From positions 1 through 58,162 of the forward strand of contig PLHP01000200.1 in the NCBI GenBank assembly GCA_003138955.1: a stretch of 58,162 nt of DNA, read 5' to 3'. The notes beneath the pieces are model-generated. The model was given only the letters and a program-made list of their open reading frames with translations. It was not told the origin of the DNA and did not search any database. The position numbers and the translations under genes are program-made. Positions 11,014 through 45,299 of the stretch are shown here, piece after piece. Each line of letters opens with the position of its first letter. Position 1 is the first letter of the stretch. Source of the DNA: Acidobacteriaceae bacterium. GTDB lineage: Bacteria; Acidobacteriota; Terriglobia; Terriglobales; Acidobacteriaceae.

Positions 11014-11739
11014 CTACCGCGTAACCAGCCCGGTTTTGTACGCGCCGTCGGGCAGCCCAGTGATCCGTATTCCGCCGTGCCCCTTGTGCCGGATGTTGAG
11101 CCCGATCAGCAGCGCGGTGATTTGCTCGACAATGCGCGCGTTCTCAAGCTTCCCGCCATCAATCGCTCGCACGCGCGCGATCTTCGCCGCGAGTTCCATA
11201 GCAACCTGCGTGGCATTGGGATCATCGCTGCATACGACGACGTCGCAATCCACGTCATCGTCTGTGTTGAGCACGTCCGCCGAAACGTTCTGGAATGCCG
11301 CCGCGACGGAAACGCCCTTAGGAACAAGTTCCGCCGTCTGTTGCGCCGCCGAACCTTGCCACACGCCGATGGTGCGGCTGGCGCGTCCGCCCACGCTCGC
11401 AGCCAGCGGAACGGTGGCATCAATCAGAATGCTGCCCGGACGAATCGCAGGCTTCAGTTGCTTCAGCAGCGCCGCCTGCCCTTCGAAGGGAACGGTGAGC
11501 ACCAGCAGATCGCTGGCGACGCAGGCGGCCGAATTTTCCAGCCCGGAAACCTGACTGTTTGCGCCCGCCCGCTTACGGATTGCTTCTGCCGTCTGCTGTG
11601 CCCGCGCGGCATCACGCGAGCCGATGATGACGGTCTCTCCCGCGCGCGCCCAACGCAGCGCGAGGCCCGTACCAGCCGGGCCGGTACCGCCGATGACGGC
11701 GATGGCCCGGCTCAGGCGGGAGTTCATGTGATCTTTCAT
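11014..11739 (-). CDS. fno: NADPH-dependent F420 reductase (Fno/NpdG family)
   Basis: IAVIGGTGPAGTGLALRWARAGETVIIGSRD matches the NpdG/Fno Rossmann signature. The start codon overlaps the cofH stop (ATGA). Confidence 0.75.
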   Translation of the reverse strand: MKDHMNSRLSRAIAVIGGTGPAGTGLALRWARAGETVIIGSRDAARAQQTAEAIRKRAGANSQVSGLENSAACVASDLLVLTVPFEGQAALLKQLKPAIRPGSILIDATVPLAASVGGRASRTIGVWQGSAAQQTAELVPKGVSVAAAFQNVSADVLNTDDDVDCDVVVCSDDPNATQVAMELAAKIARVRAIDGGKLENARIVEQITALLIGLNIRHKGHGGIRITGLPDGAYKTGLVTR

Positions 11740-12989
11740 GCGAACTCCGCAACCAGCGCGGGCTCGAAGGAGGCCTCCGAAGAAAGCGCCTCGACGGGCA
11801 GCTTGATTTTCATGCGCGAATATTTTGTGTTGCGCTCCGCCGGAATGCGCCCGATCCCGAGAATCAACGCCTGAAAATCTTCCGGACTGGTGTACTGGCC
11901 CGCGGTTGCTCCGGCCTCACGCGAGATGTTTTCTTCCATCAGCGTTCCACCGTAGTCGTTGGCGCCGGCGTGCAGGCAAAGCTGCGAAAGTTTACGGTTC
12001 AGCTTCACCCACGAGACCTGGATGTTATGAATCGAGCCGGCGAGCAGTATTCTGGCGAGCGCGTGAATTTTGAGATGTTCGGCGAGCGTTGGCCCAGTGC
12101 GCGCCAGTCCCTGCTGGAACAAAAGCGTGTTCTGGTGCACAAAGCCAAGCGGCACGAACTCGGTGAAGCCGCCGGTTTCAGCCTGAATCTGCCGGAACAA
12201 GGACAATTGCCTTACCCAGTGACCGGGTGTTTCCCTGTGCCCGTACATCAGCGTCGAAGTGCTCGGGATGCCACAAGCGTGCGCGGTGCGGATCACCTCT
12301 TGCCATTGCGCCGACGAAAGTTTGTTGCGCGACAGTACATTACGCACTTCGTCATCCAGAATCTCGGCCGCCGTGCCCGGCAGCGTGTCCAATCCGTTAT
12401 CGCGCAGCATCATGAGATAGTCGCGCAGGGTCATGCCGGTCAGTTCCACGCCGTACACAATCTCCATCGGAGAAAAGGCGTGGATGTGCATGCCCGGCAC
12501 GGCATTCTTCACGGCGCGCAGAATGTCGCGATAATAAAACGGCGGCAGATCGCGCGGCAGGCCGCCCTGAATGCAGACTTCGGTAGCGCCCAGTTCCCAC
12601 GCTTCTTTACTTTTGCGCCCCATTTCTTCGAGCGAATGAAAGTAGGAGTCGGCTTCTCGCGGCCCGCGGCTGAACGCGCAAAACTTGCAACCCACGAAAC
12701 AGATGTTCGTGAAATTGATATTGCGGTTGACCACGTAGCTGACGATGTTGCCAACCAGTTCGCGCCGAAGGATATCCGCGGCGACCAGAAGTGCGAGCAA
12801 ATCCGCACCATTACAGTTTGCCCCATCGCAGTTCGCCAGGACGTAGCGCTCCTCGTCCCTCAGGCATGCTCCGTCTTGTGTTTCCAGCACACGCTCCAAG
12901 GCGGCGCGAATCGGCGGGGAAGCTTGTGGTGCGATCTCGTCCCAGGTCAGTGCGGGGAATTGCTCGAGTTCTGAAGCCTGCCAAGCCAT
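11736..12989 (-). CDS. cofH: FO synthase subunit CofH-like radical SAM enzyme
   Basis: SYVVNRNINFTNICFVGCKFCAF contains the CxxxCxxC cluster motif, and the C-terminal ANDYGGTLMEENISREAG is also present. ATG at 12989 has a GGAG RBS. The 571-aa ORF extension would overlap cofE and is rejected. MqnC/MqnE are related, so the CofH call relies on the cofC/cofE/fno context. Confidence 0.7.
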   Translation of the reverse strand: MAWQASELEQFPALTWDEIAPQASPPIRAALERVLETQDGACLRDEERYVLANCDGANCNGADLLALLVAADILRRELVGNIVSYVVNRNINFTNICFVGCKFCAFSRGPREADSYFHSLEEMGRKSKEAWELGATEVCIQGGLPRDLPPFYYRDILRAVKNAVPGMHIHAFSPMEIVYGVELTGMTLRDYLMMLRDNGLDTLPGTAAEILDDEVRNVLSRNKLSSAQWQEVIRTAHACGIPSTSTLMYGHRETPGHWVRQLSLFRQIQAETGGFTEFVPLGFVHQNTLLFQQGLARTGPTLAEHLKIHALARILLAGSIHNIQVSWVKLNRKLSQLCLHAGANDYGGTLMEENISREAGATAGQYTSPEDFQALILGIGRIPAERNTKYSRMKIKLPVEALSSEASFEPALVAEFA

Positions 12990-13012
12990 AACATTCTCCA
13001 ATCGAAAAGCTC

Positions 13013-13831
13013 CTAGCGAAAAAGATCGTTCCGTGCGGGCCGGATCAATTCCCGCGCCCCACCGCTTCCAATGCGAGTTTCGCGGTAGTAAGAGTAGCCG
13101 CGAATGATGCACGCGGGCGTGCCCGCCAGCTTGCCGCAGACCAACCCTGCCGCGCAAGCCAGTTCGTCGGCCACCGCGTCCACCGTCGCATGCAGCGAGT
13201 ATCCGTGCGGATCGCGGCGTCCGCGGTAGTCGAGCAGAGGCCGCATCCCGGCGACGCCAATCGCCACTTCCGTCAAGCCTTCCCGCCATGGACGCCCGAA
13301 ACTGTCGCTGACGATAACCGCGATCTCGATCCCAAGCTGCTTCTTCAACTCCCGCCGCAACTTCGACGCGGAACGATCCGGATTCACCGGCAGCAACGCC
13401 GCGTGCCGCCCACCATCCACGTTCGAAACATCCACGCCGCTGTTCGCGCAAACGAAGCCATGCTTCGTCTCGGTGATCAGCACACCGCGCTTTCGCCGCA
13501 CGATTCGACGACTCTCACGCAGCGCCAATTCACAGACGCGCGCATCGAGCCCGTAGCGCCGAGCCCAAGCCCGCGAAGCCGCCGAGGGCCGGATCTCATC
13601 GAGCGCGACCAGCGCGCCTTCCGCCTTCGACACAACTTTATGCTTCACCACCAGGATGTCGCCATCCCGAAAGCGCAGCCCCAGGCTGCGCGCCGCCGCC
13701 AACAACCGTGCGCACAGCGATTCTCCGGCGCGGATTTCTCCACTGACGGCGACCGGAAGAATGCGAATTTCCCCAGCCGCACGCTTACCCGCGTGCCTAG
13801 CGACCCCGGACCCCATGCTAGATCCGGCCAT
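13013..13831 (-). CDS. cofE: Coenzyme F420-0:L-glutamate ligase (CofE, short form without an FbiB nitroreductase domain)
   Basis: DGDILVV.HKVVSKAEG, ITETKHGFVCANSGVD.SN and SDSFGRPWREG match CofE motifs. The ATG at 13831 lies 1 nt after the cofC stop. The upstream 94 codons of the listed ORF overlap cofC and are rejected. Confidence 0.85.
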   Translation of the reverse strand: MAGSSMGSGVARHAGKRAAGEIRILPVAVSGEIRAGESLCARLLAAARSLGLRFRDGDILVVKHKVVSKAEGALVALDEIRPSAASRAWARRYGLDARVCELALRESRRIVRRKRGVLITETKHGFVCANSGVDVSNVDGGRHAALLPVNPDRSASKLRRELKKQLGIEIAVIVSDSFGRPWREGLTEVAIGVAGMRPLLDYRGRRDPHGYSLHATVDAVADELACAAGLVCGKLAGTPACIIRGYSYYRETRIGSGGARELIRPARNDLFR

Positions 13832-13832
13832 G

Positions 13833-14474
13833 TCAGGCCTGAATCCGCCCGCCGAGGTTCCAGCTCCGCACCAGCTTCTGCGATCGCCGCTCTCCGCTGG
13901 CAGCCGCCAGTTCGCGGAGATCTTCGGGACGATCGACATCCCGCGCGATGCCCGGCAGTTCGAGTACAACACAAGGCAGGCCCGTTGCCTTCGCCGCGGC
14001 CAGGTGCGGCAGGAAGCTATCGTTGCCGAAGCGAAGCGGAAACAAATCACCCGGAGCTCGCCAGGCTGCATTCGTGCCGCGCCCCGCCGCGTCCGGCACC
14101 AGCACCGCGCCACCGGAAGGTGCGCTGTCCACGATCTTCTGCAGTTCCGACTTGTCGATCAAAGGAATATCTGCCGGAACCACCAGGGTGCTGTCTGCTC
14201 CACGCTTTCTGCACACCGCCGTGGCCATCTCGATGGCGCTGGTCTCTCCGGAGTTGTCGTCCGCAACGACCTCAAAATTGAAACGCGCCGCCAAGTCGCG
14301 CGCAAACGAATCATTGGTGACCACCGCAACAGCGGGCCGGCTTTGCCAGTGCGCCAGCGCTTGCAGCACGTCCTCGCACATCGCTTGCGCCAGCGCAAAA
14401 CGTTGTTGCGGACTCAGAATAGGAGAGAGCCGCTGCTTGGCGTCGACGAGGTTTTTTACGGGAACCAGAATCAT
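13833..14474 (-). CDS. cofC: 2-phospho-L-lactate / phosphoenolpyruvate guanylyltransferase (CofC/FbiD)
   Basis: 213 aa. MILVPVK.L..AK.RL, ..DLP and the GTN....P..F...FG..SF..H layout are typical of CofC. Confidence 0.8.
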   Translation of the reverse strand: MILVPVKNLVDAKQRLSPILSPQQRFALAQAMCEDVLQALAHWQSRPAVAVVTNDSFARDLAARFNFEVVADDNSGETSAIEMATAVCRKRGADSTLVVPADIPLIDKSELQKIVDSAPSGGAVLVPDAAGRGTNAAWRAPGDLFPLRFGNDSFLPHLAAAKATGLPCVVLELPGIARDVDRPEDLRELAAASGERRSQKLVRSWNLGGRIQA

Positions 14475-14742: not shown

Positions 14743-15426
14743 ATGGATAGGACTCAGATCAACCGTGAAAGTGTAGCGGATCAGGTGGCCACCCTTCTCC
14801 GCCAGCGCATTCTCGAGGGCGAGTTCCGGCCCGGCACCCAGCTTCAAGAATTGCCCTTGGCTTCGTCCCTGGGCGTTTCCCGCAACACCATGCGGGAGGC
14901 GATCCGGATCTTGTCACTCGAAGGTCTGTTGCGACGCAGCCTACATCGGGGCGCTGCGGTCTCGCAACTCTCATTGCGCGATGTGCAGGAGATCTACCAG
15001 TTGCGCCGGATGCTGGAGTTGCCCGCGGTGCTCGCGGCACGCCGTCCAGACCCAGGTTTGTTGCAGGAAATTTGCAGCGCGGTAGAAGAATACGAACTAG
15101 CCGCGCACGACCGGAACTGGTCCCGCGCTGTCAGCCACGACCTTCATTTTCACAGCCTGCTGATCCGCTTCCACGGCAACAAGCGGCTGGATTCGTTTTA
15201 CAAGAACATGCTTGGCGAACTGCGTGTCGGCATGGTGTTGGTGGACCGGAGCCATGACAATCCCGGCGTACTGATTCCTGTCCACCTGGAGATGTGTCAA
15301 TTGCTCACTAGGGGAAAGCTTAAGCAGTGTGCCGCTGTACTGGAGCAGCATCTCGAGGACTCCGAATCGAGGCTGACTCAGATCCTGCTCGCGCATGCGG
15401 CACGAGGGGTGGGGACGGCTCAGTAG
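14743..15426 (+). CDS. GntR-family transcriptional regulator (FadR/FCD-type C-terminal domain)
   Basis: An N-terminal winged-HTH (LRQRILEGEFRPGTQL.E..LA..LGVSR.T.REA...L..EGLL) is followed by a helical FCD-like domain. Confidence 0.85.
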   Translation: MDRTQINRESVADQVATLLRQRILEGEFRPGTQLQELPLASSLGVSRNTMREAIRILSLEGLLRRSLHRGAAVSQLSLRDVQEIYQLRRMLELPAVLAARRPDPGLLQEICSAVEEYELAAHDRNWSRAVSHDLHFHSLLIRFHGNKRLDSFYKNMLGELRVGMVLVDRSHDNPGVLIPVHLEMCQLLTRGKLKQCAAVLEQHLEDSESRLTQILLAHAARGVGTAQ

Positions 15427-15467
15427 CTGCCTGAGAAATAACAACAAATTTGCGAGGGGGGAATTCG

Positions 15468-18400
15468 ATGGTCGTTCAATACGTTGTGGAATCCGATGCC
15501 GGAACGCCCGGCTCCGTTCAGTCCTCGTTGTTCCATCGCCGTCGCTTGGGAGCGGTCATCAGCCTTCTGCTGTTTTTGACCGTGTCGAGTTGGCTGGGAG
15601 GCCAAGCCATTAACAGCACGCTCCAGGGACGGGTCGCCGACACCACCGGCGCGGTGATTCCAGAAGCGACGGTTACCGTGCTGAATGCGGCCACCGGTTT
15701 GAAGCGCTCGGTCACGGCCAATGCGGTGGGCGAGTATCAGATCGGCGGGCTTCCGGCTGGCGATTACACCGTCGATGTCGAAAAACAGGGTTTCCAAAAA
15801 TCCGCCAAGAAGATTCACCTGGATCTGGGCGCGTCAGGCACCGTGGATTTCGCGCTGGCTCCGGGCCAGGTGCAAACCCAGGTCGAGGTGCAGGACGTTG
15901 GCGAAGTTGCTGAGCCCACTCGAAGCATGGTGAGCGAGGTCATTAATCAGCGACAAATCGAGGACCTTCCGGTTAACGGAAGGGAGTTCATTGATTTCGC
16001 GTTGCTCGCGCCCGGCGTCACCATCGGAAACACCACCTCCGGCAGCACCGACGTCATCGTGGAACCGGTCACCAAGCTCTCCTTCGCCGGCCAGAATATT
16101 CACTACAATTTCATCGCCGTCGACGGCGCCGATGACATCTCGACCGCCTCGGGCATTCAGCGTGGCACGCCGCCACAAGAGTCGGTGCAGGAGTTTCGCG
16201 TCATCAACACCGACTACACCACGGAATTTGGACGAGCCACCGCCGGCATCGTAAACATCATCACCAAGAGCGGCACCAATGACATGCACGGTTCGGCTTA
16301 TGACTATCTGCAGAATAACGCAATGGACGCCACCAGCATTCTCGCGGCGCCCCACTTCAATGTGCTGCGGCAAAATCAGTTTGGCGGCGCCATCGGCGGA
16401 CCTGTCAAAAAAGACAAGACATTCATTTTTGCCAATTACGAAGGGCAGAGACGCACCGAATCGCCCACCTACAATTCGGTGGTGCTGAACAACCTTTCGG
16501 CGATTAACAACGTCAAGACGACGGTATTCGGCCTGGCGCCCGAAAACCTGTTTGTACTGCGCAACGGAAACACGGACAACGGTCTGGTTAGGCTGGATCA
16601 GAATTTCGGCCGCAGTAACCTTTTTGTCCGTTATTTCATCAATGACGACCGCTTGAGCAACCAGTCGCCTCTGAACAATGGCTTCGACCTGCCGTCGGCA
16701 TTCAAGAACAACTACATCACGGACCAGTCGCTCGCCGGCGGTTTGACGACGGTGTTTTCCTCATCGTGGGTGAACGACCTGCGTATGCAGTATGCGCACC
16801 GCACCTTCGACTTCCCGGTTGTTTCCACCCAGCCGCACCTGGAAGTCGCCAATACGTTTGCCGTCGGTGTCAACCGGGGCAACCCGGATATTTACCGCGA
16901 GTCGCGCTTCGAGTTGGTCGACAACATGACGCATAACCTGTCGAACCACACCATCGGCTTCGGCGGCAACTTTGATCGCGTCGGCACTTACGAATCCTTC
17001 CCGCTGTTTTATCCGTTCGAGGCAGACTTTTCGAACCTCCCCGCTTTTCTCGGCACGGATGGCGCAGCAGGATGCACGGCAGGAGTTTCATGCCCCGATC
17101 CGTTCGTGATCTTCTTCCAACGTTTCAGCACTACTACGACCCCGCTCTTCGACGAGACATCTCTGGCGGGAGGAACGGCGGTGTATCACGGAGGTGCGAT
17201 TTCCCAAGCTATCCGTGACCAATCCTCGGACACGCTCGACCACACCTACAGCGGCTTTTACATTCAGGATAAGTGGCGCGCCTCTGCGAACTTGACATTA
17301 AATGGCGGAGTGAGGTGGGAATTTGAGAGGTGGCCTTCCGGAGTTCTCAATACGCAGTGGAAGAACATTGACCCGCGCGTTGGCCTAGCCTACGGACTAG
17401 GAACGTCACGCGACGTCATGTTCCGTGCCGGTTTCGGGCTGTTCCACGGGATCATTCCATCACCCCTGCTCATGTGCCAGGCGCCTTCCTGCGGAGGACA
17501 ATCCGCCTACCCGGGGCGTCCATTTGAAAATGGTCTGAATGCGAACACTGGCCTTTTTAGTTTTGCCAGCTCCCCATTCATTATGAATTACGGCCTCAAC
17601 GCCTTGCTCACGCAAGCCACTTACCCGAACGGAACGCCTTTTGACTGCCCATCCGGTGGCCCTTTGGCCCCCGCAGGCACGCTGGCGGGCTGCGGATTCC
17701 TGCAAGACGCGACCATCGTACGGTTCGATCAAAACAGCCAGAACCCGTATGGCATTCAGACCAGCGCCTCGCTCGAGTTCCAGCCTTTCAAGGACTCGGT
17801 GTTGAGCGTCACCGGAGTTTATCTGCGAGGAGTACACCTCGGCAGCTTTTACAACGTGAATCAGCCTGACCCCAGCGGCACGGTAAAGGTCTATGACTCC
17901 AAGGGGCAGGCGAACTGCAAGAACGTCTATTTCGACTTCGGTGAGTCCGGGGTTGCACCGACCGACTGTACGCCGTACCCTTCGCAATTCGTCATTCCGA
18001 ACGTGCCCCACATCAACGCAATTCCGGGTTTCCGCGATCCGCAATACAGCGTCTTCTTTGAAGCCAAGTCGGGGTGGGATTCCGTTTACACCGGTCTGCT
18101 CATCAACATGAGCAAGCGGATGACACACAATGTTTCGTTTAACATCAGCTACGCCTGGTCGCATTCCATCGATGACGGTCCGAACCCCAGCTTCGTCCTG
18201 ATTCCGCAGGACAGTAACAATGGTAGCTTCGCCGCGGAGCGTGCCAATTCCGCGGACGATGTGCGGAACCGCTTCGTCGGCAATGCCATCTTCTCCAGCC
18301 CCAAGACCTGGAATGCGTACTTGCGCGACTTCAGTTTCAGCACGATCGTGACCCTGCAGTCGCCGCAGTACTTCACCAAATATGCCGGTTTTGACGCCAA

Positions 18401-18749
18401 TGGCGACGTCTTCGGAAATAATGACCGGGTCGGCAGCGACCCGCGCAACACCTTCAAGGGGGATTCACTGCAGACCGTCGACGTTCGCCTGGAGCGCACC
18501 TTCCCACTTTATGAGAGGATGCATCTCCAATTCATGGCGGAAGCCTTCAACTTGCTGAACACGGTTAACGTTCGCTACTTCAACACAAGTTATGGAGCGG
18601 CGGACTTCTGCGGGCCGGATCCGGGTGCACCAGGTTGTGCCGGAGCGCCAGCGTTCTATCGTGAGGGTTCGCCCAATCCAACCTACGGAGCGCCGAGCGC
18701 AGTATTCAACCCGCGCCAGATTCAGCTTGCACTGCGGGTAACGTGGTAG
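15468..18749 (+). CDS. TonB-dependent receptor with an N-terminal carboxypeptidase-regulatory-like domain
   Basis: The ATG at 15468 follows a GAGGGGGG RBS. The protein has a signal peptide, a CarboxypepD_reg-like segment (LQGRVADTTGAVIPEATVTVLN..TG......TNAVGEYQIGGLPAGDYTV) and a plug region (DLPVNGREF). A ~900-aa barrel ends in an aromatic residue (RVTW). Confidence 0.85.
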   Translation: MVVQYVVESDAGTPGSVQSSLFHRRRLGAVISLLLFLTVSSWLGGQAINSTLQGRVADTTGAVIPEATVTVLNAATGLKRSVTANAVGEYQIGGLPAGDYTVDVEKQGFQKSAKKIHLDLGASGTVDFALAPGQVQTQVEVQDVGEVAEPTRSMVSEVINQRQIEDLPVNGREFIDFALLAPGVTIGNTTSGSTDVIVEPVTKLSFAGQNIHYNFIAVDGADDISTASGIQRGTPPQESVQEFRVINTDYTTEFGRATAGIVNIITKSGTNDMHGSAYDYLQNNAMDATSILAAPHFNVLRQNQFGGAIGGPVKKDKTFIFANYEGQRRTESPTYNSVVLNNLSAINNVKTTVFGLAPENLFVLRNGNTDNGLVRLDQNFGRSNLFVRYFINDDRLSNQSPLNNGFDLPSAFKNNYITDQSLAGGLTTVFSSSWVNDLRMQYAHRTFDFPVVSTQPHLEVANTFAVGVNRGNPDIYRESRFELVDNMTHNLSNHTIGFGGNFDRVGTYESFPLFYPFEADFSNLPAFLGTDGAAGCTAGVSCPDPFVIFFQRFSTTTTPLFDETSLAGGTAVYHGGAISQAIRDQSSDTLDHTYSGFYIQDKWRASANLTLNGGVRWEFERWPSGVLNTQWKNIDPRVGLAYGLGTSRDVMFRAGFGLFHGIIPSPLLMCQAPSCGGQSAYPGRPFENGLNANTGLFSFASSPFIMNYGLNALLTQATYPNGTPFDCPSGGPLAPAGTLAGCGFLQDATIVRFDQNSQNPYGIQTSASLEFQPFKDSVLSVTGVYLRGVHLGSFYNVNQPDPSGTVKVYDSKGQANCKNVYFDFGESGVAPTDCTPYPSQFVIPNVPHINAIPGFRDPQYSVFFEAKSGWDSVYTGLLINMSKRMTHNVSFNISYAWSHSIDDGPNPSFVLIPQDSNNGSFAAERANSADDVRNRFVGNAIFSSPKTWNAYLRDFSFSTIVTLQSPQYFTKYAGFDANGDVFGNNDRVGSDPRNTFKGDSLQTVDVRLERTFPLYERMHLQFMAEAFNLLNTVNVRYFNTSYGAADFCGPDPGAPGCAGAPAFYREGSPNPTYGAPSAVFNPRQIQLALRVTW

Positions 18750-18854: not shown

Positions 18855-20003
18855 ATGCCAGCGATTCCCAGACCCTTCCCGGACAGTGCGAGTTTGGCAC
18901 CCACCTTGGCGGCTGGTTTTGCGCCACTGAGCGCACGCCGGCTCTACATTTTCGGTGGTATCGCTCTAATTGCCGGCGGACTTCTGTTTGGCGACATCTT
19001 TGCCGTTTTCATCCTCCACCAGAACGCCGCCCGGCAAGGCGAAGCGCTCAGCGCAGCCTCTCGCGCCATCGCTGCCGGAAATGCCGCGGCGGTGAATGAA
19101 TGGTTCGGTCATCTGGGGAACGTGCTGGAGGATCGTGGCACCAAGGTGGACGCCCACGTTCACATAATTGGTGCGGGCTACCTGGCGCTGCTATTGGCGC
19201 TGGTGCAGCCGTACATCGCGCTCTCCCGGCAAACGAAAAAATCCCTGGCGGCTCTCTTCATCGCGGGCGGAGTGCTTTTGCCGGTTGGGATTTTTCTGAT
19301 TCACTACATCGGGCTCAGCGGCAGCCCGTTTTCAACAATTGGCTGGGCAAGCGTGCTAGCTGATTCTGCCGGAGCCTTGCTGACCCTTGTTCTCATCCTG
19401 CAAGCGTGGGGTTTCTGGAAGTATGTACGCAGCCGCCAACTGAGCGAGCCCGAACTTGGCGACGAAGACAGCATGTCGCGGCGCGCGCTCCTGACCGGCG
19501 GGACGATTCTGGTCTTGCTCGGCCTGCTGCATGGCGCGTATTACTCTGGCGCTCTGCTGTACGAGCACGAGCGGATGGAGACCGCGATCCTGCAACGTTT
19601 GATCAGCGCTGCCACCGTGGGAAACCTTGACGCCGCCACAGCGGAGATCAATAATTTCGGCAATCTTGCCGGCGCACGAGCCGTGAACATCGCTGCGCAC
19701 TCGCACATTATCGAATTTGGTTTGCTGGCGATGCTGCTTTCGTTCGTCCAGCCCTTGGTGTTCCTCTCAGAAAAATGGAAACGGCGGTGGGTGAAGTTGC
19801 TGCTGGGGGGCTCGGTGATTCTACCCGTGTTCGTGCTCCTGGAGTTGAAACTCGGAATGCTTGCCGGAGGTATCGCCGACATCGGCGGCCTGATGGTCAT
19901 GGTTAGCCTGGTTGGAATGCTGGTCGGCATCTTGCGTTATTCCGGCGGCCTTGATGTGGCAGAGACCGATGTTGCAGAGGCCGATGCCGCGGAGGGTGCA
20001 TGA
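18855..20003 (+). CDS. Integral membrane protein made of two tandem 4-TM His-motif modules (unknown family)
   Basis: Eight predicted TM helices. Two internally homologous halves each carry H after TM1 and (D/A)AHxH before TM2. The start is uncertain (ATG 18855; the ORF is open from 18759). The stop overlaps the next start (ATGA at 20000). Confidence 0.65.
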   Translation: MPAIPRPFPDSASLAPTLAAGFAPLSARRLYIFGGIALIAGGLLFGDIFAVFILHQNAARQGEALSAASRAIAAGNAAAVNEWFGHLGNVLEDRGTKVDAHVHIIGAGYLALLLALVQPYIALSRQTKKSLAALFIAGGVLLPVGIFLIHYIGLSGSPFSTIGWASVLADSAGALLTLVLILQAWGFWKYVRSRQLSEPELGDEDSMSRRALLTGGTILVLLGLLHGAYYSGALLYEHERMETAILQRLISAATVGNLDAATAEINNFGNLAGARAVNIAAHSHIIEFGLLAMLLSFVQPLVFLSEKWKRRWVKLLLGGSVILPVFVLLELKLGMLAGGIADIGGLMVMVSLVGMLVGILRYSGGLDVAETDVAEADAAEGA

Positions 20004-20497
20004 TGACGGGATCGCGCAAACTTCTGATTCTCGGGGGGATGGCTTTCGCCGCCTTGGGCATGCTCTACGGGCTGCAATATGCGCTTCTGGTGGAGCACCA
20101 GACGCTCGACCACATGGGAGGGTCACTCTCACAGTCTTTTGCCGCAGCGGCCAGCCGTAATGCTGGGGAGTCCCAGGCGGCGCTCGAACAGTATGGCGAA
20201 ACCAAGTACGATTATGTTCGCCAGGTGGATGCTCACTCCCACTGGATTGGACTCGCCACGCTCATGATCGTGCTGGGCGTAATTTTTGAACGGGTGAACT
20301 TCAGCGAAGGAATTCGGCAACTGGTTGCATTTTCTCTGTTGGCGGGCAGCGCGCTATTCCCGCTGGCGATCATTCTTCAGACGTATCATCATGGAGCATT
20401 AGTCTGGAAGGCTCTGGCTGTGGTCGGCTCCGGGTTGATCATCGCCGCGTTGGCGGCGACGGCTTGGGGATTTGCCCGGCCGGGTACAACGGGTTAA
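20000..20497 (+). CDS. Integral membrane protein, a single 4-TM His-motif module (paralogue of the two halves of the preceding gene)
   Basis: 165 aa with four hydrophobic helices. It has VEHQ after TM1 and DAHSHWIG before TM2, and aligns by eye with both halves of the upstream protein. Confidence 0.65.
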   Translation: MMTGSRKLLILGGMAFAALGMLYGLQYALLVEHQTLDHMGGSLSQSFAAAASRNAGESQAALEQYGETKYDYVRQVDAHSHWIGLATLMIVLGVIFERVNFSEGIRQLVAFSLLAGSALFPLAIILQTYHHGALVWKALAVVGSGLIIAALAATAWGFARPGTTG

Positions 20498-20620: not shown

Positions 20621-21514
20621 ATGTATCCGCGATCATTTCACTATCACCGGGCGGGATCGCTGAAAGAAGCGGTCACCATGCTCGGCCAGCTCGGCAAGAA
20701 CGCAAAGTTTCTTGCCGGTGGACAGAGTCTGATTCCGTTGCTCAAGTTCCGCTTCGCCAACCCCGAGCACCTGGTGGACTTGAGCTTCATCCCGGGCACC
20801 TCCTTTATTAAAGAAGACTCGGGAGCGATGCATTTCGGATTGATGACCCGTCACTCCGAGATCGAGCACTCCGCGCTGGCGAGAAGGATTCCGGTGCTGC
20901 ACGACTGCGCCGCCGGGATTGCCGACGTGCAAGTGCGAAACCAGGGCACCATCGGCGGATCGCTGGCGGAAGCCGATCCGAGCGGCGATTGGGCCAATGC
21001 CTTGATCACGCTGGACACCACCGTTCACTGCCTCGGTGCAAACGGCACGCGTACCATCGCTCTGAGCGACTTCGTCACAGACGCCTACACCACCGCGCTC
21101 GCTCACGAAGAACTTGTAACCGAAGTTGTAGTGAAGATTCCGCCTAAGGGCAGCGGCGGAGCCTATCTTGCCTTTAAGCGGGCCGCTCCTGTGTATCCGA
21201 GCGCCAGTGTGGCTGTGCAACTCAAGTTGGCGGGGGACGTTTGTGAGGATGTAGCGATTGCTCTCGGCTGCGTCGGTCTGACCGCCATCCGCGCCACCGA
21301 GGCCGAGACGGCGCTTCGCGGACAGATCCTGAACGACAAAACAGTGGCCACTGCCGCCGAAGCCGCGCGTGCTGCCGCCGATCCCCAGTCTGACATGCGA
21401 GGATCGGCGGAATACAAGCGCCAACTCATCGTAGCTCTGGCAAAGCGAGCCATTCAGATTGCCGCACGCCGCGCTCGAGGAGAAAAAGTGGAAGGGGCCC
21501 ATCTCTATGCCTGA
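20621..21514 (+). CDS. Molybdenum hydroxylase FAD-binding medium subunit (CoxM/XdhB-like)
   Basis: 297 aa. F.YHRA.SL.EA, FLAGGQSLIPLLK.R and the C-terminal RGSAEYKR are typical of CO dehydrogenase flavoprotein-domain subunits. Confidence 0.85.
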   Translation: MYPRSFHYHRAGSLKEAVTMLGQLGKNAKFLAGGQSLIPLLKFRFANPEHLVDLSFIPGTSFIKEDSGAMHFGLMTRHSEIEHSALARRIPVLHDCAAGIADVQVRNQGTIGGSLAEADPSGDWANALITLDTTVHCLGANGTRTIALSDFVTDAYTTALAHEELVTEVVVKIPPKGSGGAYLAFKRAAPVYPSASVAVQLKLAGDVCEDVAIALGCVGLTAIRATEAETALRGQILNDKTVATAAEAARAAADPQSDMRGSAEYKRQLIVALAKRAIQIAARRARGEKVEGAHLYA

Positions 21515-22001
21515 AACAGAGATCGTGGAAAAAGTCGCCATCAATATCAAGGTGAACGGCAAGGCCTACCCGCGTCAGGTCGAGCCGCGCTTGTTGCTGG
21601 TCGAGTTTTTGCGGGAGACGTGCGACCTCACCGGCACGCACGTCGGTTGCGACACGACGTACTGCGGCGCTTGCACCGTGCTGATGAACGGACTGGCGAT
21701 AAAGTCCTGCACGGTGTTTGCGGTGCAAGCTGACGGGTCGGAGATCACGACCGTTGAGGGCCTGGAAAAAGATGGCAAGCTTGATCCGATTCAAAGAGCT
21801 TTCGGCGATTCGTACGGCCTGCAGTGTGGCTACTGCACGCCCGGTTTGTTGCTCTCCACCCATCAGTTGCTCGCGCACAACCCCGAGCCGAGCGAAAAGG
21901 AAATCCGCAAAGCGATCGGCGGCAACACCTGCCGCTGCACCGGGTACATGAACGTTTTCAAGGCCATTCGGCAAGCGGGCCTTAACATGAAGGGAGTTTG
22001 A
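21507..22001 (+). CDS. Molybdenum hydroxylase [2Fe-2S] small subunit (CoxS-like)
   Basis: It carries [12 protein letters not shown] and CGYCTPG...CRCTGY cysteine motifs. The ATG at 21507 overlaps the medium-subunit stop by 8 nt. Confidence 0.9.
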
Positions 22002-22002
22002 G

Positions 22003-22515
22003 ATGGCGATTAAGTTCTCCGGTGAGTTCGAGGTCAAGAAGAGACCTGAGGAGGTTTATGAGTTCCTGACGGATCCGAACCGGTTTGCGCCGCTGCTGCC
22101 GGATTTTCAGGGAGTCTCGGTGGAAGATGCAACGCACTTTACGGTGAAGGTGAAGGTGGGCATTTCCTATATTAAAGGCACTGCGCACGTGAAGTTGGAA
22201 CTGTCCGAGAGCGATCATCCTCGGCGCGCGCAATATAAAGGACAGGGATCCGTCGCCGGTGGAAACGTCACCATGGTCGCCGGTTTTGACCTGTCTCCGA
22301 TCGCGGGCGGAAGCGCAGAAGGAGCCGCGGCAGGACCCGCAGAAGGAGCCACGGACGGAACCGCGCTCGTAACCGTACTCGGCACCAAGGTGAACTGGCA
22401 GGGCGAAGCCCAGCTTTTCGGCCGGCTGACTTCGGTGGCCGGCGGGCTGATCGAGCCGCTGGGTAAGAAGTCGATTCAAAAATTAATCGATGGATTGCAG
22501 GCGGCTTTGGCGTAG
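22003..22515 (+). CDS. CoxG-like SRPBCC protein
   Basis: 170 aa. The N-terminus (F.V...PEEVYEFLTDP.....LLP) and C-terminus (G.L.E...K....K.ID.L) resemble carbon monoxide dehydrogenase subunit G. It contains an Ala/Gly/Glu-rich low-complexity insertion (GGSAEGAAAGPAEGATDG). Confidence 0.7.
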   Translation: MAIKFSGEFEVKKRPEEVYEFLTDPNRFAPLLPDFQGVSVEDATHFTVKVKVGISYIKGTAHVKLELSESDHPRRAQYKGQGSVAGGNVTMVAGFDLSPIAGGSAEGAAAGPAEGATDGTALVTVLGTKVNWQGEAQLFGRLTSVAGGLIEPLGKKSIQKLIDGLQAALA

Positions 22516-22563
22516 ATGTGTGGGGCAGGCATTTCTGCCGTCGAAGATGGAGGTACTAATAGC

Positions 22564-25026
22564 GTGACTGAAGCGATTAAGAACGGACCGACCTGGGTAG
22601 GTACTTCGCTGCCTCGGAAAGAGGAAGACCGGCTGCTGCGCGGCCGGGGCAAGTTTGTGGACGATATCAAGTTGCGGGAAATGACGTATCTCCGCTTCGT
22701 GCGCTCCCCGTATGCGCATGCCCGGGTCCTCAGCGTGGATACCTCGGCTGCGGAAGCATTGCCTGGTGTCGTGTGCACGATCACCGGCAAGGAAGTGGCC
22801 GCCCAGACGCAGCCTTTCATCGAGATGGCGCCGGGCCAAGGGCAGAAGATTCGCGACTTCCCCTTGGCTGTCGAAAAGGTCCGCTACCAGGGGGAACCAG
22901 TAGCCGCGGTAATTGCCGAGTCTGCGAGCCTCGCCGATGATGCCGCCGAGCTGGTGCAGGTCGAGTACGAACCGCTCGAGCCCGTGGTCGACTCGGAGGA
23001 GGCGCTGTTAAATAAAAGCATTCTTCACGAAGAAGCGGGAACAAACCAGGTCTGGACTGGCATCTGGGAGTTCGGCGAGGTGGAGAAAGCGTTTCAGGAG
23101 GCGGCCTATGTGGTGAAGATCGACCGCATGCACTTCCATCGTTTCTCTTCGACCCCTCTCGAGACCAACGTCGTGATCGGCCAGTGGGAGCCGAAAGAAG
23201 ATCGCATTCAATACTGGTGTAATAATTCGTTTCCCTCGTTTGCCATTCAATTTATTGCTGCCCACCTCATGGTCCATATCGATCGCATCCGGGCGCAGAC
23301 CTCTGATATCGGGGGGAGCTTCGGCATCAAGATCACCAGCTATCCGCAGATGGCGGTGTGCGCGCTGGCTTCAAAGAAAGCCGGCGGACGTCCGGTGAAG
23401 TGGGTGGAAACGCGCTCCGAGCACATGACTGCAAGCGCGCACGGAAACGAGCGCACCTTCCGCGACACGCGGGTCGCGCTCGACAAGAACGGAGAGATCA
23501 CCGCGATCGCTTCACGGCATATTGACGATTGCGGAGCTTATCCTCGCTACGAACCCCTGGGATGTGTGATTTACTCCCAGGTGTTCTGCGGCACGTACCG
23601 CTTCAAGAACGCTCGTATCGAGTTCACACAGACCGTCAGCAACAAGTGCCCAGTCGGCCCCAATCGCGGCTACTCGCGCATGCAGCACCTGTGGTTCCTG
23701 GAGCGCATCGTGGACATATGCGCTCACGAAATCGGTATCGCGCCTGACGAAATGCGCCTGCGCAACTACATTCGCCCGGAAGAGTTCCCTTACACCACGC
23801 CCAACGGGTGCGTGTACGACTCCGGCAACTATCCGAAGATGCTCGAAGTTGCAAAAGACCTGATTGGTTGGGACGCCTGGCAGAAGAAGCGGGCCGAGGC
23901 GCGGCGAGAAGGCCGCATGTTCGGGATTGGCATCGGCACCACGCTCGATTCCGGAACGAACAATTTCGGACAGTCACAGATCGTCGACCCCAACGCGCCC
24001 TTTTCCGGCAACTCGCAGGGTGCGAACTGCAAACTGGATATTTATGGCGAAGTCGTGGTTGCCGTGGGCTCCTGCCCGCAGGGTCAGGGACATGAGACGG
24101 TGGCGGCGCAAGTCGTCGCCGATGTGCTCAACATCTCCCCGGACATGATCACCGTCCGCACCGGCTTCGATACCGAGCGCAACGTGCATACCGGCATGTC
24201 CGGAACCTACGCGAGTCAGTTTGTGGTTTCAGGACTGTCGGCGGTTCACGGCGCCGCCCAGAAGCTTAAGGCCGAGATGAAGCGCCTGGCCGCGTTTGTG
24301 CTCAAAACCAGTGAAGACGATCTGGAATTCGGAACCGGTGGGATGGGGCCGGAAGTCAAGGCCAAGAGCACCGGCAAGTCGATCAACTACTGGGGTCTGG
24401 CGAACATTGTTAACGTGAATAGCGCCGTGCTCTCTCCGGAACTGCAAGACGTCACGCTCAACTGCCGCTACATCTGGCGCGCCAATTTCAAGGTGCCAGA
24501 CAAAGAAAAGAAGTATGGCAACCTCACCCTAACCTATTCCTCACAATTGCACATCGCAGTGATCGAGGTGGATCGCGATACCTTCGTGCCCAAGATTCTC
24601 GACTACGTTGCGGTGGAAGATTGCGGGGTTGCCATCAATCCGCGGATCGTGGAAGGGCAGGTCTATGGCGCGACGGCTCATGCCATTGGCGCCGCGCTGA
24701 TGGAGAACTGCGTCTACGATGCGGTCGGCAACATGCTGACCAGTACGTTCAGCGACTACACGCCGATAACATCCATGAATATTCCCAACATTAAATATGG
24801 ACACATTTCGACACCTTCGCCCTTCACCTACAGTGGCGCAAAGGGCATGGGGGAGGGCGGCGCAGGTCCGATCCACACGATTTCAGCGACATTGCAGGAC
24901 GCGTTGTTTGGGCAAGGTATCTTTATCAACGAATCCTTTAACAACGCCAACAGCATTTTCCGTTCGCTCAAGTATCGGGAAGGCGGACAGCTCGCTCAGT
25001 CAGTGACGTTGGAGAAGCGGGTTTAG
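22564..25026 (+). CDS. Molybdopterin-binding large subunit of a xanthine-dehydrogenase/CoxL-family hydroxylase (substrate unknown)
   Basis: VG.SLPRKEDRLLRG.GKFVDDI, DIGGSFGIK and the C-terminal GAKGMGEGG are family hallmarks. The GTG at 22564 has a GGAGG RBS and is preferred; ATG at 22516 is also possible. Confidence 0.85.
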   Translation: MTEAIKNGPTWVGTSLPRKEEDRLLRGRGKFVDDIKLREMTYLRFVRSPYAHARVLSVDTSAAEALPGVVCTITGKEVAAQTQPFIEMAPGQGQKIRDFPLAVEKVRYQGEPVAAVIAESASLADDAAELVQVEYEPLEPVVDSEEALLNKSILHEEAGTNQVWTGIWEFGEVEKAFQEAAYVVKIDRMHFHRFSSTPLETNVVIGQWEPKEDRIQYWCNNSFPSFAIQFIAAHLMVHIDRIRAQTSDIGGSFGIKITSYPQMAVCALASKKAGGRPVKWVETRSEHMTASAHGNERTFRDTRVALDKNGEITAIASRHIDDCGAYPRYEPLGCVIYSQVFCGTYRFKNARIEFTQTVSNKCPVGPNRGYSRMQHLWFLERIVDICAHEIGIAPDEMRLRNYIRPEEFPYTTPNGCVYDSGNYPKMLEVAKDLIGWDAWQKKRAEARREGRMFGIGIGTTLDSGTNNFGQSQIVDPNAPFSGNSQGANCKLDIYGEVVVAVGSCPQGQGHETVAAQVVADVLNISPDMITVRTGFDTERNVHTGMSGTYASQFVVSGLSAVHGAAQKLKAEMKRLAAFVLKTSEDDLEFGTGGMGPEVKAKSTGKSINYWGLANIVNVNSAVLSPELQDVTLNCRYIWRANFKVPDKEKKYGNLTLTYSSQLHIAVIEVDRDTFVPKILDYVAVEDCGVAINPRIVEGQVYGATAHAIGAALMENCVYDAVGNMLTSTFSDYTPITSMNIPNIKYGHISTPSPFTYSGAKGMGEGGAGPIHTISATLQDALFGQGIFINESFNNANSIFRSLKYREGGQLAQSVTLEKRV

Positions 25027-34249: not shown

Positions 34250-34370
34250 AATCGGGGTCTGAGATCTGGCTGAATGAGGCCGCTCGGGCGCAAATCACAA
34301 GGATGTGTGATCAATATCACTGCACCGAGTGAGCGTCTGGGCGACCTTAGGATCTTGCGTGGAGGTCCAC

Positions 34371-36881
34371 ATGGGAGTGGCACAATCGGTCCCGGTCGAA
34401 TCCAACTGGATACCAAGCACCTGCGGCATGTGTCTGCATGGCTGCGGAATCCTGGTACAGGTTCGTGATGGAGTCGCGCTCAAGATCGAAGGCGATCCGT
34501 CTAACCCCGACAATCTAGGCAAGCTGTGTCCCAAGGGCAATGCCGGGCTGTCGCGCTTGTACGATCCCACGCGTGTGCTCAAGCCCATGAAGCGGACGAA
34601 TCCGCAAAAAGGACCCGGCATCGATCCGAAATGGGTGGAGATCTCGTGGGACGAAGCCTACGGCATCGTCGCCCAGGAACTGGGCAAGGTGCGGGCCGAT
34701 GATCCACGCAAGCTGCTCTGCGCTATCGGCGACTTCCAGAGGATTCTTCTGTGGGGCTGGCCGGCAGCGTTCGGTTCGCCGAACTTCTTTACCTCGCTGG
34801 GGAATTACTGTGGTGGTTCTTACCATCCGGTGAATGGCAGCGTCGATGGCTCGTTCGCCGCTATCAACGACTATGACCTGTGCAACTACTGGATCCAGAT
34901 TGGCTCCGGCGACGGATTTTCCTCGCACCTGCACCTTGCAGGCAGTGCCAAGCGGATGGCCGACGCGCGCATGCGCGGCATGAGGGTCGTGAGTCTCGAC
35001 CCGCGCTGCTCAATCGCGTCGGCGAAGGCCGATGAGTGGATTCCCGCCCTGCCGGGCACGGATCGGGCTTTTGTGCTGGGCATGGCCCACGTGCTGATCC
35101 ACGAACTAAAACGTTACGACCGGGAATTTCTGCGCGATCGGACGAACGCTCCGTATCTGGTAAAGAATGACGGCCACCATCTGCGCTCTGCGGACGGTAA
35201 GGCGATGGCATGGGACCTGAAGCTGGGGGCCGCACGCCCGTGGGATGAAGTCGCGGCGGGAAACATGGCGCTGGAGGGAACATTCACTGTGGACAACGCC
35301 AGCGTCCGCACTGGCTTCCAGGTGTGGACGGATCTTTTGGCAGATCACACGCCGGAGCGGATGTCCCAAGTGAGCACGGTTCCGGCCGGCACGATCCGCC
35401 GTATCGCGAAGGAATTCGTGGATGCGGCACAGATCGGCGCCACCATCGAAATCCAGGGAAAGACTTATCCGTTCCGCCCCGCCGCCCTGAATTACTACCG
35501 CGGCTCGCAGTCGCATTCCAACGGCTTGTTCGACAACCTGACGTTCAAGATGATCAATATGCTGGTGGGCAACATCGACGTGCCCGGCGGCCATCTCGGC
35601 GTGCCGCTGGATCATCGCGGCTTCTTCGTGCATCCCGGCGAGGATGGCATGTTGAAGCCGGAGCCGCACCAGTTGCACCCAGCTCCGCCGTTCAAATATC
35701 CGCCCGACTCGACCCACCTGATGGAGTGGTTTCCCATAGGGTTCGACGCCGGGCAGCTCAACACCGAGACCCTCCTCGACCCGAAGAAGTTCGGCCTGAA
35801 TTACGAGCCCGAAGCCGTACTGCTCTACCACTCGAATCCATTGTGGAACCTGCCGGAAACCGACAAGGTCGAAAAGATCATGGCGAAAATGAAGTTTGTC
35901 GTCGCCATTGACATTCAGCACACGGAGTCGACGCAGTGGGCGGACGTATTCCTGCCGGCCCACACCTTCCTCGAGTCTTACTTGCTCAATTGCCTCGAGC
36001 CCCCCGCGGTCACCGGCCACTCGCTGCGGCAGCCGGTCGTCGAACCTGTGGGAGATACGCGCGACGCCTACGATATCCTCACCGAACTGGCGGAGCGGAT
36101 GGGCTTCCGGGATGACTGGAATGACGTCCTGAACATGGTCTGCGGTTATACCGCACAGCCGAAGTATCTCCTCGATTCGGAAAAGCGTTACAGCGTCGAG
36201 GAGTTTTGGGACCAGTACGCGCGCAGCGTCTACGGCGATGAAAAAGGACTGGACTGGTTCAAGGAGCACGGGCACGCGGTGCGCTACCGCACTCCGGAAG
36301 AAACCTACATGCCCTATGGCGACCTGCGCATCCCGTTTTATTTTGAGTTCATCCTGCGAACGGGAGAGGACATGCGGCGCAACTTTACCGAGGTGGGATT
36401 GAAAGACTGGCCGCTCGATAACTACCAGCCCTTGCCGTTCTGGAAAAACTCGCAGGTGATCGAGGACGAGAAGGCGGGCTACGAATACTTCGCGATTACC
36501 TTCAAGGAGGGCCTGCACACTTTCGCCGACACGATGGTGATGCCCTGGCTCTCCGAGGTGAGCGAGAAAGACTCCGTCCATGGCGGCGTTTTGATCAACT
36601 CCCTGACCGCGAGAAAGCTGGGATTGAAGACCGGAGACCGCATTCGCCTGACTTCGCCGGCCGGAAGCATCGAGGGGTTTGCGCAGGTGATCGAAGGCAT
36701 TCATCCGCAGGTGTTCGGAGTCAGCAACACCCTGACGCGGTACGTCGTAACCAACGACCGGGCGAAGGAACGCGGTACGCACTTCAACCGGCTGCTGACG
36801 GGATCGATGCGCTATACCGACAGCGCCACGGGTGGGCTGGAATCGACGGCGCGGGTCCGAGTGGAATGGGTTCGAGCCTAG
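34371..36881 (+). CDS. Molybdopterin (bis-MGD) oxidoreductase catalytic subunit, DMSO-reductase family, no Tat signal
   Basis: The ATG at 34371 follows GGAGG. The N-terminal C-x2-C-x3-C-x27-C [4Fe-4S] motif reads CGMCLHGCG...LCPKG. At 836 aa, its length and composition are typical of Psr/Phs/Soe-type A subunits. No RR motif exists in the only 14 possible upstream codons. Confidence 0.85.
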   Translation: MGVAQSVPVESNWIPSTCGMCLHGCGILVQVRDGVALKIEGDPSNPDNLGKLCPKGNAGLSRLYDPTRVLKPMKRTNPQKGPGIDPKWVEISWDEAYGIVAQELGKVRADDPRKLLCAIGDFQRILLWGWPAAFGSPNFFTSLGNYCGGSYHPVNGSVDGSFAAINDYDLCNYWIQIGSGDGFSSHLHLAGSAKRMADARMRGMRVVSLDPRCSIASAKADEWIPALPGTDRAFVLGMAHVLIHELKRYDREFLRDRTNAPYLVKNDGHHLRSADGKAMAWDLKLGAARPWDEVAAGNMALEGTFTVDNASVRTGFQVWTDLLADHTPERMSQVSTVPAGTIRRIAKEFVDAAQIGATIEIQGKTYPFRPAALNYYRGSQSHSNGLFDNLTFKMINMLVGNIDVPGGHLGVPLDHRGFFVHPGEDGMLKPEPHQLHPAPPFKYPPDSTHLMEWFPIGFDAGQLNTETLLDPKKFGLNYEPEAVLLYHSNPLWNLPETDKVEKIMAKMKFVVAIDIQHTESTQWADVFLPAHTFLESYLLNCLEPPAVTGHSLRQPVVEPVGDTRDAYDILTELAERMGFRDDWNDVLNMVCGYTAQPKYLLDSEKRYSVEEFWDQYARSVYGDEKGLDWFKEHGHAVRYRTPEETYMPYGDLRIPFYFEFILRTGEDMRRNFTEVGLKDWPLDNYQPLPFWKNSQVIEDEKAGYEYFAITFKEGLHTFADTMVMPWLSEVSEKDSVHGGVLINSLTARKLGLKTGDRIRLTSPAGSIEGFAQVIEGIHPQVFGVSNTLTRYVVTNDRAKERGTHFNRLLTGSMRYTDSATGGLESTARVRVEWVRA

Positions 36882-36889
36882 GGGGAAGC

Positions 36890-37183: not shown

Positions 37184-37193
37184 CGGAGCGCCC

Positions 37194-37805: not shown

Positions 37806-37836
37806 TGAGATCCGGCGCAGGAAGCAGGGAGAGACA

Positions 37837-41500: not shown

Positions 41501-41515
41501 GACATGTTGTGCAAA

Positions 41516-42784: not shown

Positions 42785-42816
42785 AGATCACCTCAACAAA
42801 GAATTCCGCGCGCATT

Positions 42817-44058: not shown

Positions 44059-44059
44059 T

Positions 44060-45226: not shown

Positions 45227-45259
45227 CGCGTGCTTCCTATCAGTCGGAATGTTCCGACG

Positions 45260-45299
45260 GCAGGAGCAGCGCCGTCACGGAAGGCTGCGCTACTCCTGC
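45260..45299 (-). promoter_or_regulatory. Intercistronic stem-loop between the receptor gene and the PLP-enzyme genes
   Basis: gcaggagcagcg (45260-45271) pairs with cgctactcctgc (45288-45299), giving 11 of 12 complementary bases around a 16-nt loop. No U-tract follows on the minus strand. Confidence 0.35.

Follow-up and report, generated by a model that had tools for sequence, protein, structure and literature searches.

A Two-Gene, Three-Module Membrane Protein of Soil Acidobacteria as a Remote, HxH-Bearing Relative of Styrene Oxide Isomerase

Introduction

Styrene oxide isomerase (SOI, StyC) is a membrane protein of 169 aa with four transmembrane (TM) helices, and it assembles as a homotrimer in which every subunit interface holds a ferric haem b (PMC11374702). 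The haem is ligated by H58 at the periplasmic start of TM2, its iron serves as a Lewis acid, and N64, D95, N99, and Y103 position the substrate (PMC11374702). The authors of the SOI work found no structural relatives of the enzyme. Here we describe two overlapping genes, A and B, at positions 18,855 to 20,497 of a 58,162-nucleotide stretch from an Acidobacteriaceae bacterium (contig PLHP01000200.1, assembly GCA_003138955.1; the whole stretch is referred to as the window). Together they encode three copies of one four-TM module which, on profile comparison, is a remote homologue of SOI and a new branch of the SOI superfamily.

An initial annotation of the window had described these modules as carrying a periplasm-facing triad of conserved His residues at a plausible metal or ligand site, and had placed them in no family that it knew. 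The relationship to SOI gives the module a place in a superfamily and bears on the cofactor that it may hold, on the way in which its three copies may assemble, and on the reading of the operon in which it stands.

Results

Genes A and B and Their Three Modules

The two genes, their modules, and the codons of the HxH motif found in each module are as follows.

Gene A, 18855..20003, + strand: 382 aa, two fused SOI-like four-TM modules, from the open reading frame (ORF) and its translation
Gene B, 20000..20497, + strand: 165 aa, a single module of type M3, from the ORF and its translation
Module 1 (type M1), 18933..19472, + strand: about aa 27-206 of A, with TM1 closed by ILH55Q, TM2 opened by DAH101VH103, and TM3 closed by LIH150Y151
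Module 2 (type M2), 19473..20000, + strand: about aa 207-382 of A, with TM2 opened by AAH282SH284, a cytoplasmic loop containing SEKWKRRW, and TM3 closed by E330
Module 3 (type M3), which is gene B, 20000..20497, + strand: VEH33Q closes TM1 and DAH79SH81 opens TM2
HxH codons of module 1 (H101-V-H103), 19155..19163, + strand: read from the sequence, invariant in alignment A3
HxH codons of module 2 (H282-S-H284), 19698..19706, + strand: read from the sequence
HxH codons of module 3 (H79-S-H81), 20234..20242, + strand: read from the sequence

Genes A and B overlap in the four letters ATGA, in which the ATG start of B (20000-20002) and the TGA stop of A (20001-20003) interlock, both on the + strand. 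The two halves of A and the B protein are mutually paralogous in BLASTP (E 6e-20 between M1 and M2, 1e-16 between M1 and M3, and 7e-12 between M2 and M3; identity about 30%). The ORFs and the pairwise BLASTP comparisons thus agree with the overlapping pair of 2+1 modules recognized in the initial annotation. The modules are about 165-180 aa long, and four hydrophobic helices were seen in each by hydropathy. Lys and Arg residues gather in three places: the N-terminus (RR, SRR, SRK), the short loop between TM2 and TM3 (RQTKK, EKWKRRWVK), and the linker that joins the modules. On this distribution the N-terminus lies inside, and TM1 ends, TM2 starts, and TM3 ends on the periplasmic side, where the His residues of these segments also lie, as had been proposed before for the four-TM modules. 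The deduced topology agrees with that given by the SOI authors for the homologous SOI (PMC11374702). The start of gene A (MPAIP...) is common to its homologues.

Scans of A and B against Pfam and NCBIfam returned nothing usable, and the matches to DUF4184 and T2SS_HK in these family scans were dismissed as chance.

Sequence Relationship to SOI

The SOI sequence was checked against PDB 8PNU and combined with four more StyC sequences from plasmids into a five-sequence SOI profile; the reference entries for SOI are PDB 8PNU, 8PNV, and 30tw, Pfam PF26512, and NCBIfam NF045734. When 80 pooled modules were compared with this profile by hhalign, the probability was 88.8% (P 2.5e-6) over 149 columns. 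The probability against SOI lay at 86-89%, while the controls reached 0.5% or less, and the reversed SOI profile gave 0.5%. After 24 full column shuffles of the profile the score was 6 or less, and the highest score among 25 local shuffles that kept the hydrophobic segments was 22.2, compared with 40.7 for the real profile. The match was also recovered independently with type M1 alone (74.8%) and with type M2 alone (86.2%). Type M3 matched SOI weakly, with the register unchanged.

In every hhalign and HMMER alignment, the haem ligand H58 of SOI is paired with the first His of HxH, which is H101 in module 1. Further landmarks of SOI and M1 fall into one register, namely G13/G35, G24/G46, G65/G108, and P76/P119, and the loop SEKWKRRW pairs with SQKWGQIW of marine StyCs in this same register. 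Searches of the PDB sequences with the module profiles by HMMER gave no significant match; the SOI chain 30tw_A was the second-best chain for the A3 profile at a non-significant E of 2, in three collinear pieces and again in the same register.

The homologues also carry precomputed Pfam tags. Those of B are tagged as DUF8059 (PF26248) and those of A as Aq_1264_TM (PF27139), both flagged weak or faint, and SOI itself (PF26512) appears faintly. The tags suggest that the family is already catalogued as domains of unknown function. In the library searched, no papers were found on DUF8059/PF26248, Aq_1264/PF27139, and PF26512. With these tags and the hhalign probabilities, the module, which the initial annotation could assign to no family, is now placed as a remote member of the SOI superfamily.

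Predicted Structure

The AlphaFold2 (AF2) model of P0153, a natural fusion of all three modules that shares about 80% identity with A and 85-90% with B, was used for the complete set. This model has a predicted local distance difference test score (pLDDT) of 90.8, a predicted TM-score (pTM) of 0.90, and twelve long helices; gene B modelled alone reached a pLDDT of 95.1. In the AF2 models each module has four long helices, of which TM1 and TM2 are about 45 residues each. The Ala-rich stretch between them, described earlier as a loop of about 50 aa, is instead predicted with high confidence (pLDDT 91-95) to fold as a helical hairpin, by which TM1 and TM2 are prolonged into the periplasm.

In Foldseek, a single module (the gene B model) superposed on SOI 8pnu_A with TM-scores of 0.57/0.61 and a probability of 0.99, and among the top-ranked single-module matches SOI gave the best TM-score alongside mPGES-1. 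The latter belongs to the MAPEG enzymes, which are four-TM homotrimers with a cofactor at the subunit interfaces. Superposition of a single module on mPGES-1 (PDB 4BPM, 4AL0, 4AL1) is about equal to that on SOI (TM-score 0.55-0.64, E 0.47 or worse). However, the MAPEG enzymes show no sequence signal and no Pfam MAPEG match to the modules, and their cofactor is glutathione, not haem.

Family Size and the Three-Copy Rule

An exhaustive hidden Markov model (HMM) search with the three-module profile matched 388 clusters (50% identity) among 1.84 billion representatives, 210 of them at E 1e-10 or better; the family is small. At 90% clustering more than 1400 relatives of B and more than 2700 of A are found, almost all of them unnamed metagenome proteins of Terriglobales/Acidobacteriota. 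When one genome per GTDB species was scanned, relatives were present in 289 genomes, and the best 80 of these are nearly all metagenome-assembled genomes of Terriglobia. The family is uncharacterised and hardly occurs outside soil Acidobacteria. The bins of two loci (L034, L038) are labelled Clostridia and Bradyrhizobium, but the loci carry typical versions of the Acidobacterial operon at 51-75% identity; their labels probably reflect binning contamination rather than transfer.

Synteny was mapped with marker proteins on these best 80 of the 289 species genomes, and B stands immediately after A in 79 of the 80. Members occur as one module of about 165 aa, as two modules of 340-390 aa, or as three modules of 512-561 aa (a 12-TM fusion), and two HMM domains are seen in the relatives of gene A. 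The three-module fusions are present in several clades (P0153, P0241, P0244, P0398, P0402-P0414). The 2+1 gene layout recurs in two very distant clades, with proteins of 354+167 aa (L094) and 350+170 aa (L096). Since 2+1 pairs are found in near and distant clades and fusions elsewhere, three copies per unit are a constant feature: the family always encodes the module three times, whether in a 2+1 gene pair or joined in a single 12-TM fusion.

In the distant clade represented by L096 (870-8883) and L097 (2352-8552), the 2+1 pair is translationally coupled to a gene for a secreted Kelch beta-propeller. The genes after this A'-B' pair code for a di-haem cytochrome c, two small membrane proteins (DUF6644), CoxG, CoxM, CoxS, and CoxL.

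Conserved Residues

The HxH motif at the periplasmic start of TM2 is present in 78 of 80 modules across the whole family (hmmalign), and the two exceptions, HSR and HSE, each occur in a first module. Within the clade of the window (alignment A4), HxH, two glycines of TM1, and a proline of TM3 are invariant over the three module types. The His at the end of TM1 is kept in type 1 (LHQ/LHP/SHV) and in type 3 (EHQ), but it is not conserved in type 2, in which the His of the window's YEHE is variable. The motif at the end of TM3 is type-specific, namely IHY for M1, E(L/F)K for M2, and LQT for M3; E330 at the end of TM3 in module 2 is invariant, and a His at this position is variable across the family. 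No conserved His was found on the cytoplasmic side of the modules.

Because type 2 lacks a conserved TM1-end His, the His residues do not form a uniform three-His site. Of the triad proposed in the initial annotation, the HxH pair is near-invariant in all three types and conserved among homologues, whereas the TM1-end His is conserved in modules 1 and 3 only.

Operon and Genomic Neighbours

The neighbours of A and B that belong to the conserved arrangement in the window are as follows.

GntR/FCD-family regulator, 14743..15426, + strand: from Pfam and synteny, the first gene of the conserved arrangement
TonB-type outer-membrane receptor (CarboxypepD_reg + OMP_b-brl_4), 15450..18749, + strand: from Pfam, the most constant neighbour of A-B
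CoxM-, CoxS-, CoxG-, and CoxL-like molybdenum (Mo) hydroxylase genes, 20621..25026, + strand: from Pfam and NCBIfam

The stop of the receptor gene lies 105 bases before the start of gene A, and the end of gene B lies 123 bases before the CoxM-like gene. A promoter and terminator scan found no feature separating A-B from these neighbours. The standard order in the family is GntR, TonB-type receptor, in most loci flavin reductase and luciferase-like monooxygenase (LLM), then A and B, followed by CoxM, CoxS, CoxG, CoxL, an ApbA-like reductase, an M24 hydrolase, an M20 deacylase, in some loci a further M24, and ApbA. Neighbours were counted in the 72 loci with enough flank: the receptor is upstream of A in 67, a monooxygenase or flavin reductase is upstream of A in 56, and CoxM and CoxS are downstream of B in 56. 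These counts support the functional link to the receptor and the Mo-hydroxylase genes that had been suspected from the window by itself.

The best NCBIfam match of the flavin reductase is StyB (141 bits), and the monooxygenase adjoining it resembles the flavin mononucleotide (FMN) type. The closest NCBIfam models of the Mo enzyme in the window are the alpha, beta, and gamma subunits of the archaeal-type glyceraldehyde dehydrogenase, with subunit scores below the cut-offs (485 vs 790, 278 vs 350, and 244 vs 290 bits). Glyceraldehyde dehydrogenase is an aldehyde-oxidising member of the xanthine oxidase family. By model score, the CoxMSGL-like enzyme of the window is not a CO dehydrogenase. The CoxS- and CoxL-like proteins of the window have no twin-arginine (Tat) or general secretory (Sec) signal, and the operon codes for no recognisable inner-membrane transporter and no other electron acceptor for the Mo enzyme.

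On the StyC plasmids, the sty operons contain StyA, in some cases OmpW, StyB, StyC, and StyD. The usual Acidobacterial operon can be likened to the sty operon, because a counterpart exists for each of these parts. An aldehyde dehydrogenase in place of the Cox genes was looked for at the Cox-less loci and none was found; at one such locus seen in detail (L048) the neighbours are unrelated. The three-module fusions adjoin genes for a cyclase, an FAD-hydroxylase, and an old yellow enzyme.

Other gene sets lie in the same window. An F420 biosynthesis set at 11014-14474 on the - strand stands directly upstream of the GntR-receptor-A-B operon and consists of a CofC-like gene, an F420 ligase, a CofG/H-like radical SAM gene, and an F420-dependent NADP oxidoreductase. 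At one further locus (L005, 11443-16940) this set comes after A-B, and several of the window's luciferase-like genes appear to be F420-dependent. Another TonB-type receptor (CarboxypepD_reg, Plug, OMP_b-brl_4; 45322-48603, - strand) heads an operon within 40064-48603 on the - strand, which contains three class-V aminotransferases and an AA_permease, a canonical inner-membrane transporter of a kind that the A-B operon does not have. A PsrABC-like set at 34329-38742 comprises a molybdopterin oxidoreductase with a 4Fe-4S domain, a 4Fe-4S dicluster protein, and an NrfD-type membrane subunit.

Discussion

The likeness of A-B to SOI extends over several levels. In both, the module is about 165-170 aa long, has four TM helices, and keeps its N- and C-termini in the cytoplasm, and a His at the periplasmic start of TM2, glycines of TM1, and a proline of TM2 are common to them. 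Both come in threes, SOI as a homotrimer and A-B as three modules in two chains or one. The operons of both also code for a protein of the outer membrane, a flavin reductase, a monooxygenase, and an oxidoreductase of the aldehyde type. There are differences as well. The copies of A-B are non-identical and partly fused; they carry HxH where SOI has a single His; and a helical hairpin of about 45 aa stands in place of the 20-aa periplasmic loop 1 of SOI. The partner monooxygenase of A-B is luciferase-like and not StyA, and the downstream enzyme is a Mo hydroxylase and not an NAD aldehyde dehydrogenase. A-B is thus a variant of the SOI fold that resembles a heterotrimer, is partly fused, and bears HxH.

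A possible mechanism follows the styrene pathway. Proteins A and B would assemble 1:1 into a pseudo-threefold 12-helix complex, of presumed interface geometry, that mimics the SOI homotrimer. Such a complex may hold up to three predicted haem b groups at non-equivalent module interfaces near the periplasmic face. Given the placement beside SOI, haem b held by the first His of HxH is likely, rather than a bare-metal triad. The earlier suggestion of a metal or ligand site thus remains plausible as a membrane-embedded cofactor site but not in the form of a three-His metal centre, as the triad does not extend to module 2. The second His would stand in register with SOI G60, one turn above N64. Because it comes two residues past the first, it should face a different side of TM2, where it might reach the distal side of the haem of the neighbouring module and serve either as its sixth ligand or in catalysis on that distal side. 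The adjacent TonB-type receptor would bring in the substrate, the luciferase-like monooxygenase, whose gene precedes A-B in most genomes, would oxygenate it, and it would then be acted on by A-B, which would pass a carbonyl product to the downstream Mo enzyme resembling an aldehyde oxidoreductase. This order would parallel the logic of the styrene operon, with its outer-membrane channel, StyB, StyA, StyC, and StyD. This function, in which A-B would be a haem-dependent membrane enzyme acting after oxygenation and before the Mo-dependent oxidation, is our preferred reading but the weakest step of the explanation; it is drawn by analogy, and we regard it as quite possible rather than probable.

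Several observations weigh against this placement and the function derived from it. The E-values of the single-module Foldseek matches are non-significant (0.42), MAPEG enzymes score as well as SOI, and SOI is absent from the Foldseek top 50 of the whole 12-TM model. The curated StyC model of NCBIfam gave no match to A and B even at E up to 1, and only 4 of 72 relatives match the curated StyC/SOI models, below threshold and with a best E of 0.0089. The SOI residues N64, D95, N99, and Y103 are not kept, and map to A107, G138, L142, and I146 in M1. In addition, the window is without the flavin reductase and LLM pair next to A, as are 18 of 66 Cox-bearing loci, and 13 loci consist of receptor, LLM, A, and B with no Cox genes and no aldehyde dehydrogenase nearby. 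The second His could also make the haems six-coordinate, which would suit electron transfer and not Lewis-acid catalysis. In M2, the SOI catalytic positions correspond to non-polar residues or Pro, and the alignment of TM3 is of low confidence. Each module has a conserved polar residue of its own (IHY, ELK, LQT) within about four positions of the SOI catalytic sites. Because the StyC model finds no match and the four catalytic residues are not conserved, A-B is filed as a branch of the SOI superfamily and not as an SOI; on these scores and residues it is not a StyC orthologue.

The HxH pair itself leads to another reading, in which A-B is a P-side cytochrome b. The pairs would hold three bis-His low-spin haems in a ring on the periplasmic side, forming a redox module that could serve as a quinol-oxidising, periplasm-facing relay for the CoxMSGL-like enzyme or as the reductase partner of the receptor. 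Both His residues of the motif are near-invariant in all modules, while SOI needs one, and the HxH on helix X of the haem-copper oxidases ligates two haems. CoxM and CoxS follow A-B at most loci (56/72), the operon offers the Mo enzyme no other electron acceptor, and the link to CoxG and CoxMSL recurs in the distant clade of L096/L097, where the di-haem cytochrome c and the secreted Kelch protein flank A'-B'. However, with no conserved His on the cytoplasmic side there is no evident path from a cytoplasmic flavoprotein, and the absence of Tat or Sec signals from the CoxS- and CoxL-like proteins likewise speaks against a direct wire. A-B also occurs without Cox genes in about 16 of 66 loci, and there is no detectable similarity to known cytochrome b families. 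We consider this reading, the main rival, possible but unlikely. The two roles suggested in the initial annotation, uptake or reductase partner of the receptor and electron acceptor for the Cox-like enzyme, both survive among the rivals, the second with the difficulty of the missing electron path. Membership in NarI/FdnI, cytochrome b561, or FoxB/PepSY_TM was rejected, as Pfam gave no such match and the conserved His residues lie on the periplasmic side only; the initial annotation had rightly set aside PepSY_TM/FoxB and NarI/FdnI as well as HupE and DoxX, for which no Pfam match was found either.

The constancy of the receptor gene, which is the most frequent neighbour (67/72) and part of the minimal cassette of receptor, LLM, A, and B, would also suit an inner-membrane channel or transporter that carries the receptor-delivered substrate across the cytoplasmic membrane. 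No recognisable transporter of this membrane is encoded in the operon, while the second receptor operon of the window has its AA_permease, and the SOI trimer has been likened by its authors to a channel open to the periplasm (PMC11374702). Such a role is nevertheless improbable, and the protein itself offers nothing in its favour. A-B resembles no transporter family, its sole characterised relative, SOI, is an enzyme, and its strictly conserved residue is the counterpart of a haem ligand; a gene of the major facilitator superfamily (MFS) is moreover present at some loci (L003, L034).

The whole 12-TM fusion model gave a further resemblance, which is treated as a lead and does not classify the family. 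Its top 31 matches in Foldseek were all subunit I of haem-copper oxidases or nitric oxide (NO) reductases, with E from 7e-4 to 8e-2 and probabilities of 0.84-1.0, at a TM-score of about 0.2 and a root-mean-square deviation of 22 Å. Both have 12 TM helices, and the HxH motifs of the fused form fall on TM2, TM6, and TM10. The metal-ligand His residues of the oxidases lie on helices II, VI, and X, helix X having an HxH (H419/H421) that ligates two haems. Against an oxidase profile of seven sequences, type M1 gave 42% in hhalign (P 2.6e-4, score 37.8) on helices XI-XII, compared with a maximum of 27.6 for 205 local-shuffle decoys and 17 or less for reversed controls, and the extended alignment puts HxH on IAH419FH421. 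However, types 2 and 3 and SOI itself gave nothing significant against this profile in hhalign, the whole fusion reached 4-7%, and a single module had no oxidase match in Foldseek. Membership in haem-copper oxidase subunit I was rejected in view of the TM-score of about 0.2, the lack of the six-His pattern, and the lack of a His pair at the end of TM7. A true evolutionary link between the A-B modules and these oxidases is decidedly improbable. It is a similarly long shot that the SOI/DUF8059 module is an extant relative of the unit that was triplicated into the 12-helix core of haem-copper oxidases and NO reductases, and just as doubtful that the Acidobacterial 2+1 and fused proteins are a living intermediate with three recognisable repeats. 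If the triplication were true, a haem, or a haem plus a metal centre, with redox chemistry unlike that of SOI would be possible.

Direct binding of Cu, Fe, Zn, or Ni by the periplasmic His residues (TM1 end, HxH, TM3 end) is highly improbable, for although module 1 has three to four His near the periplasmic face (H55, H101, H103, H150) and module 3 of the window has H33, H79, H81, and H130/H131, the TM1-end His is absent from module 2 across the family, the TM3-end His is variable, and the residue held in common with SOI is the haem ligand.

Taking A-B as a remote relative of SOI has several consequences. SOI has so far been one of a kind, a haem protein of the membrane whose Fe(III) serves as Lewis acid, and the A-B family would be a second, much diverged branch of its fold. 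With its non-identical, partly fused subunits and an added second invariant His, it would indicate how a symmetric haem trimer can turn asymmetric. The family is also a possible source of new membrane haem catalysts for biocatalysis. Among the catabolic operons of uncultured soil Terriglobia, the one that contains it is one of the more conserved, and if A-B turns out to be a haem protein and not a transporter or a metal site, this would change the reading of the receptor, monooxygenase, and Mo enzyme operon as a whole.

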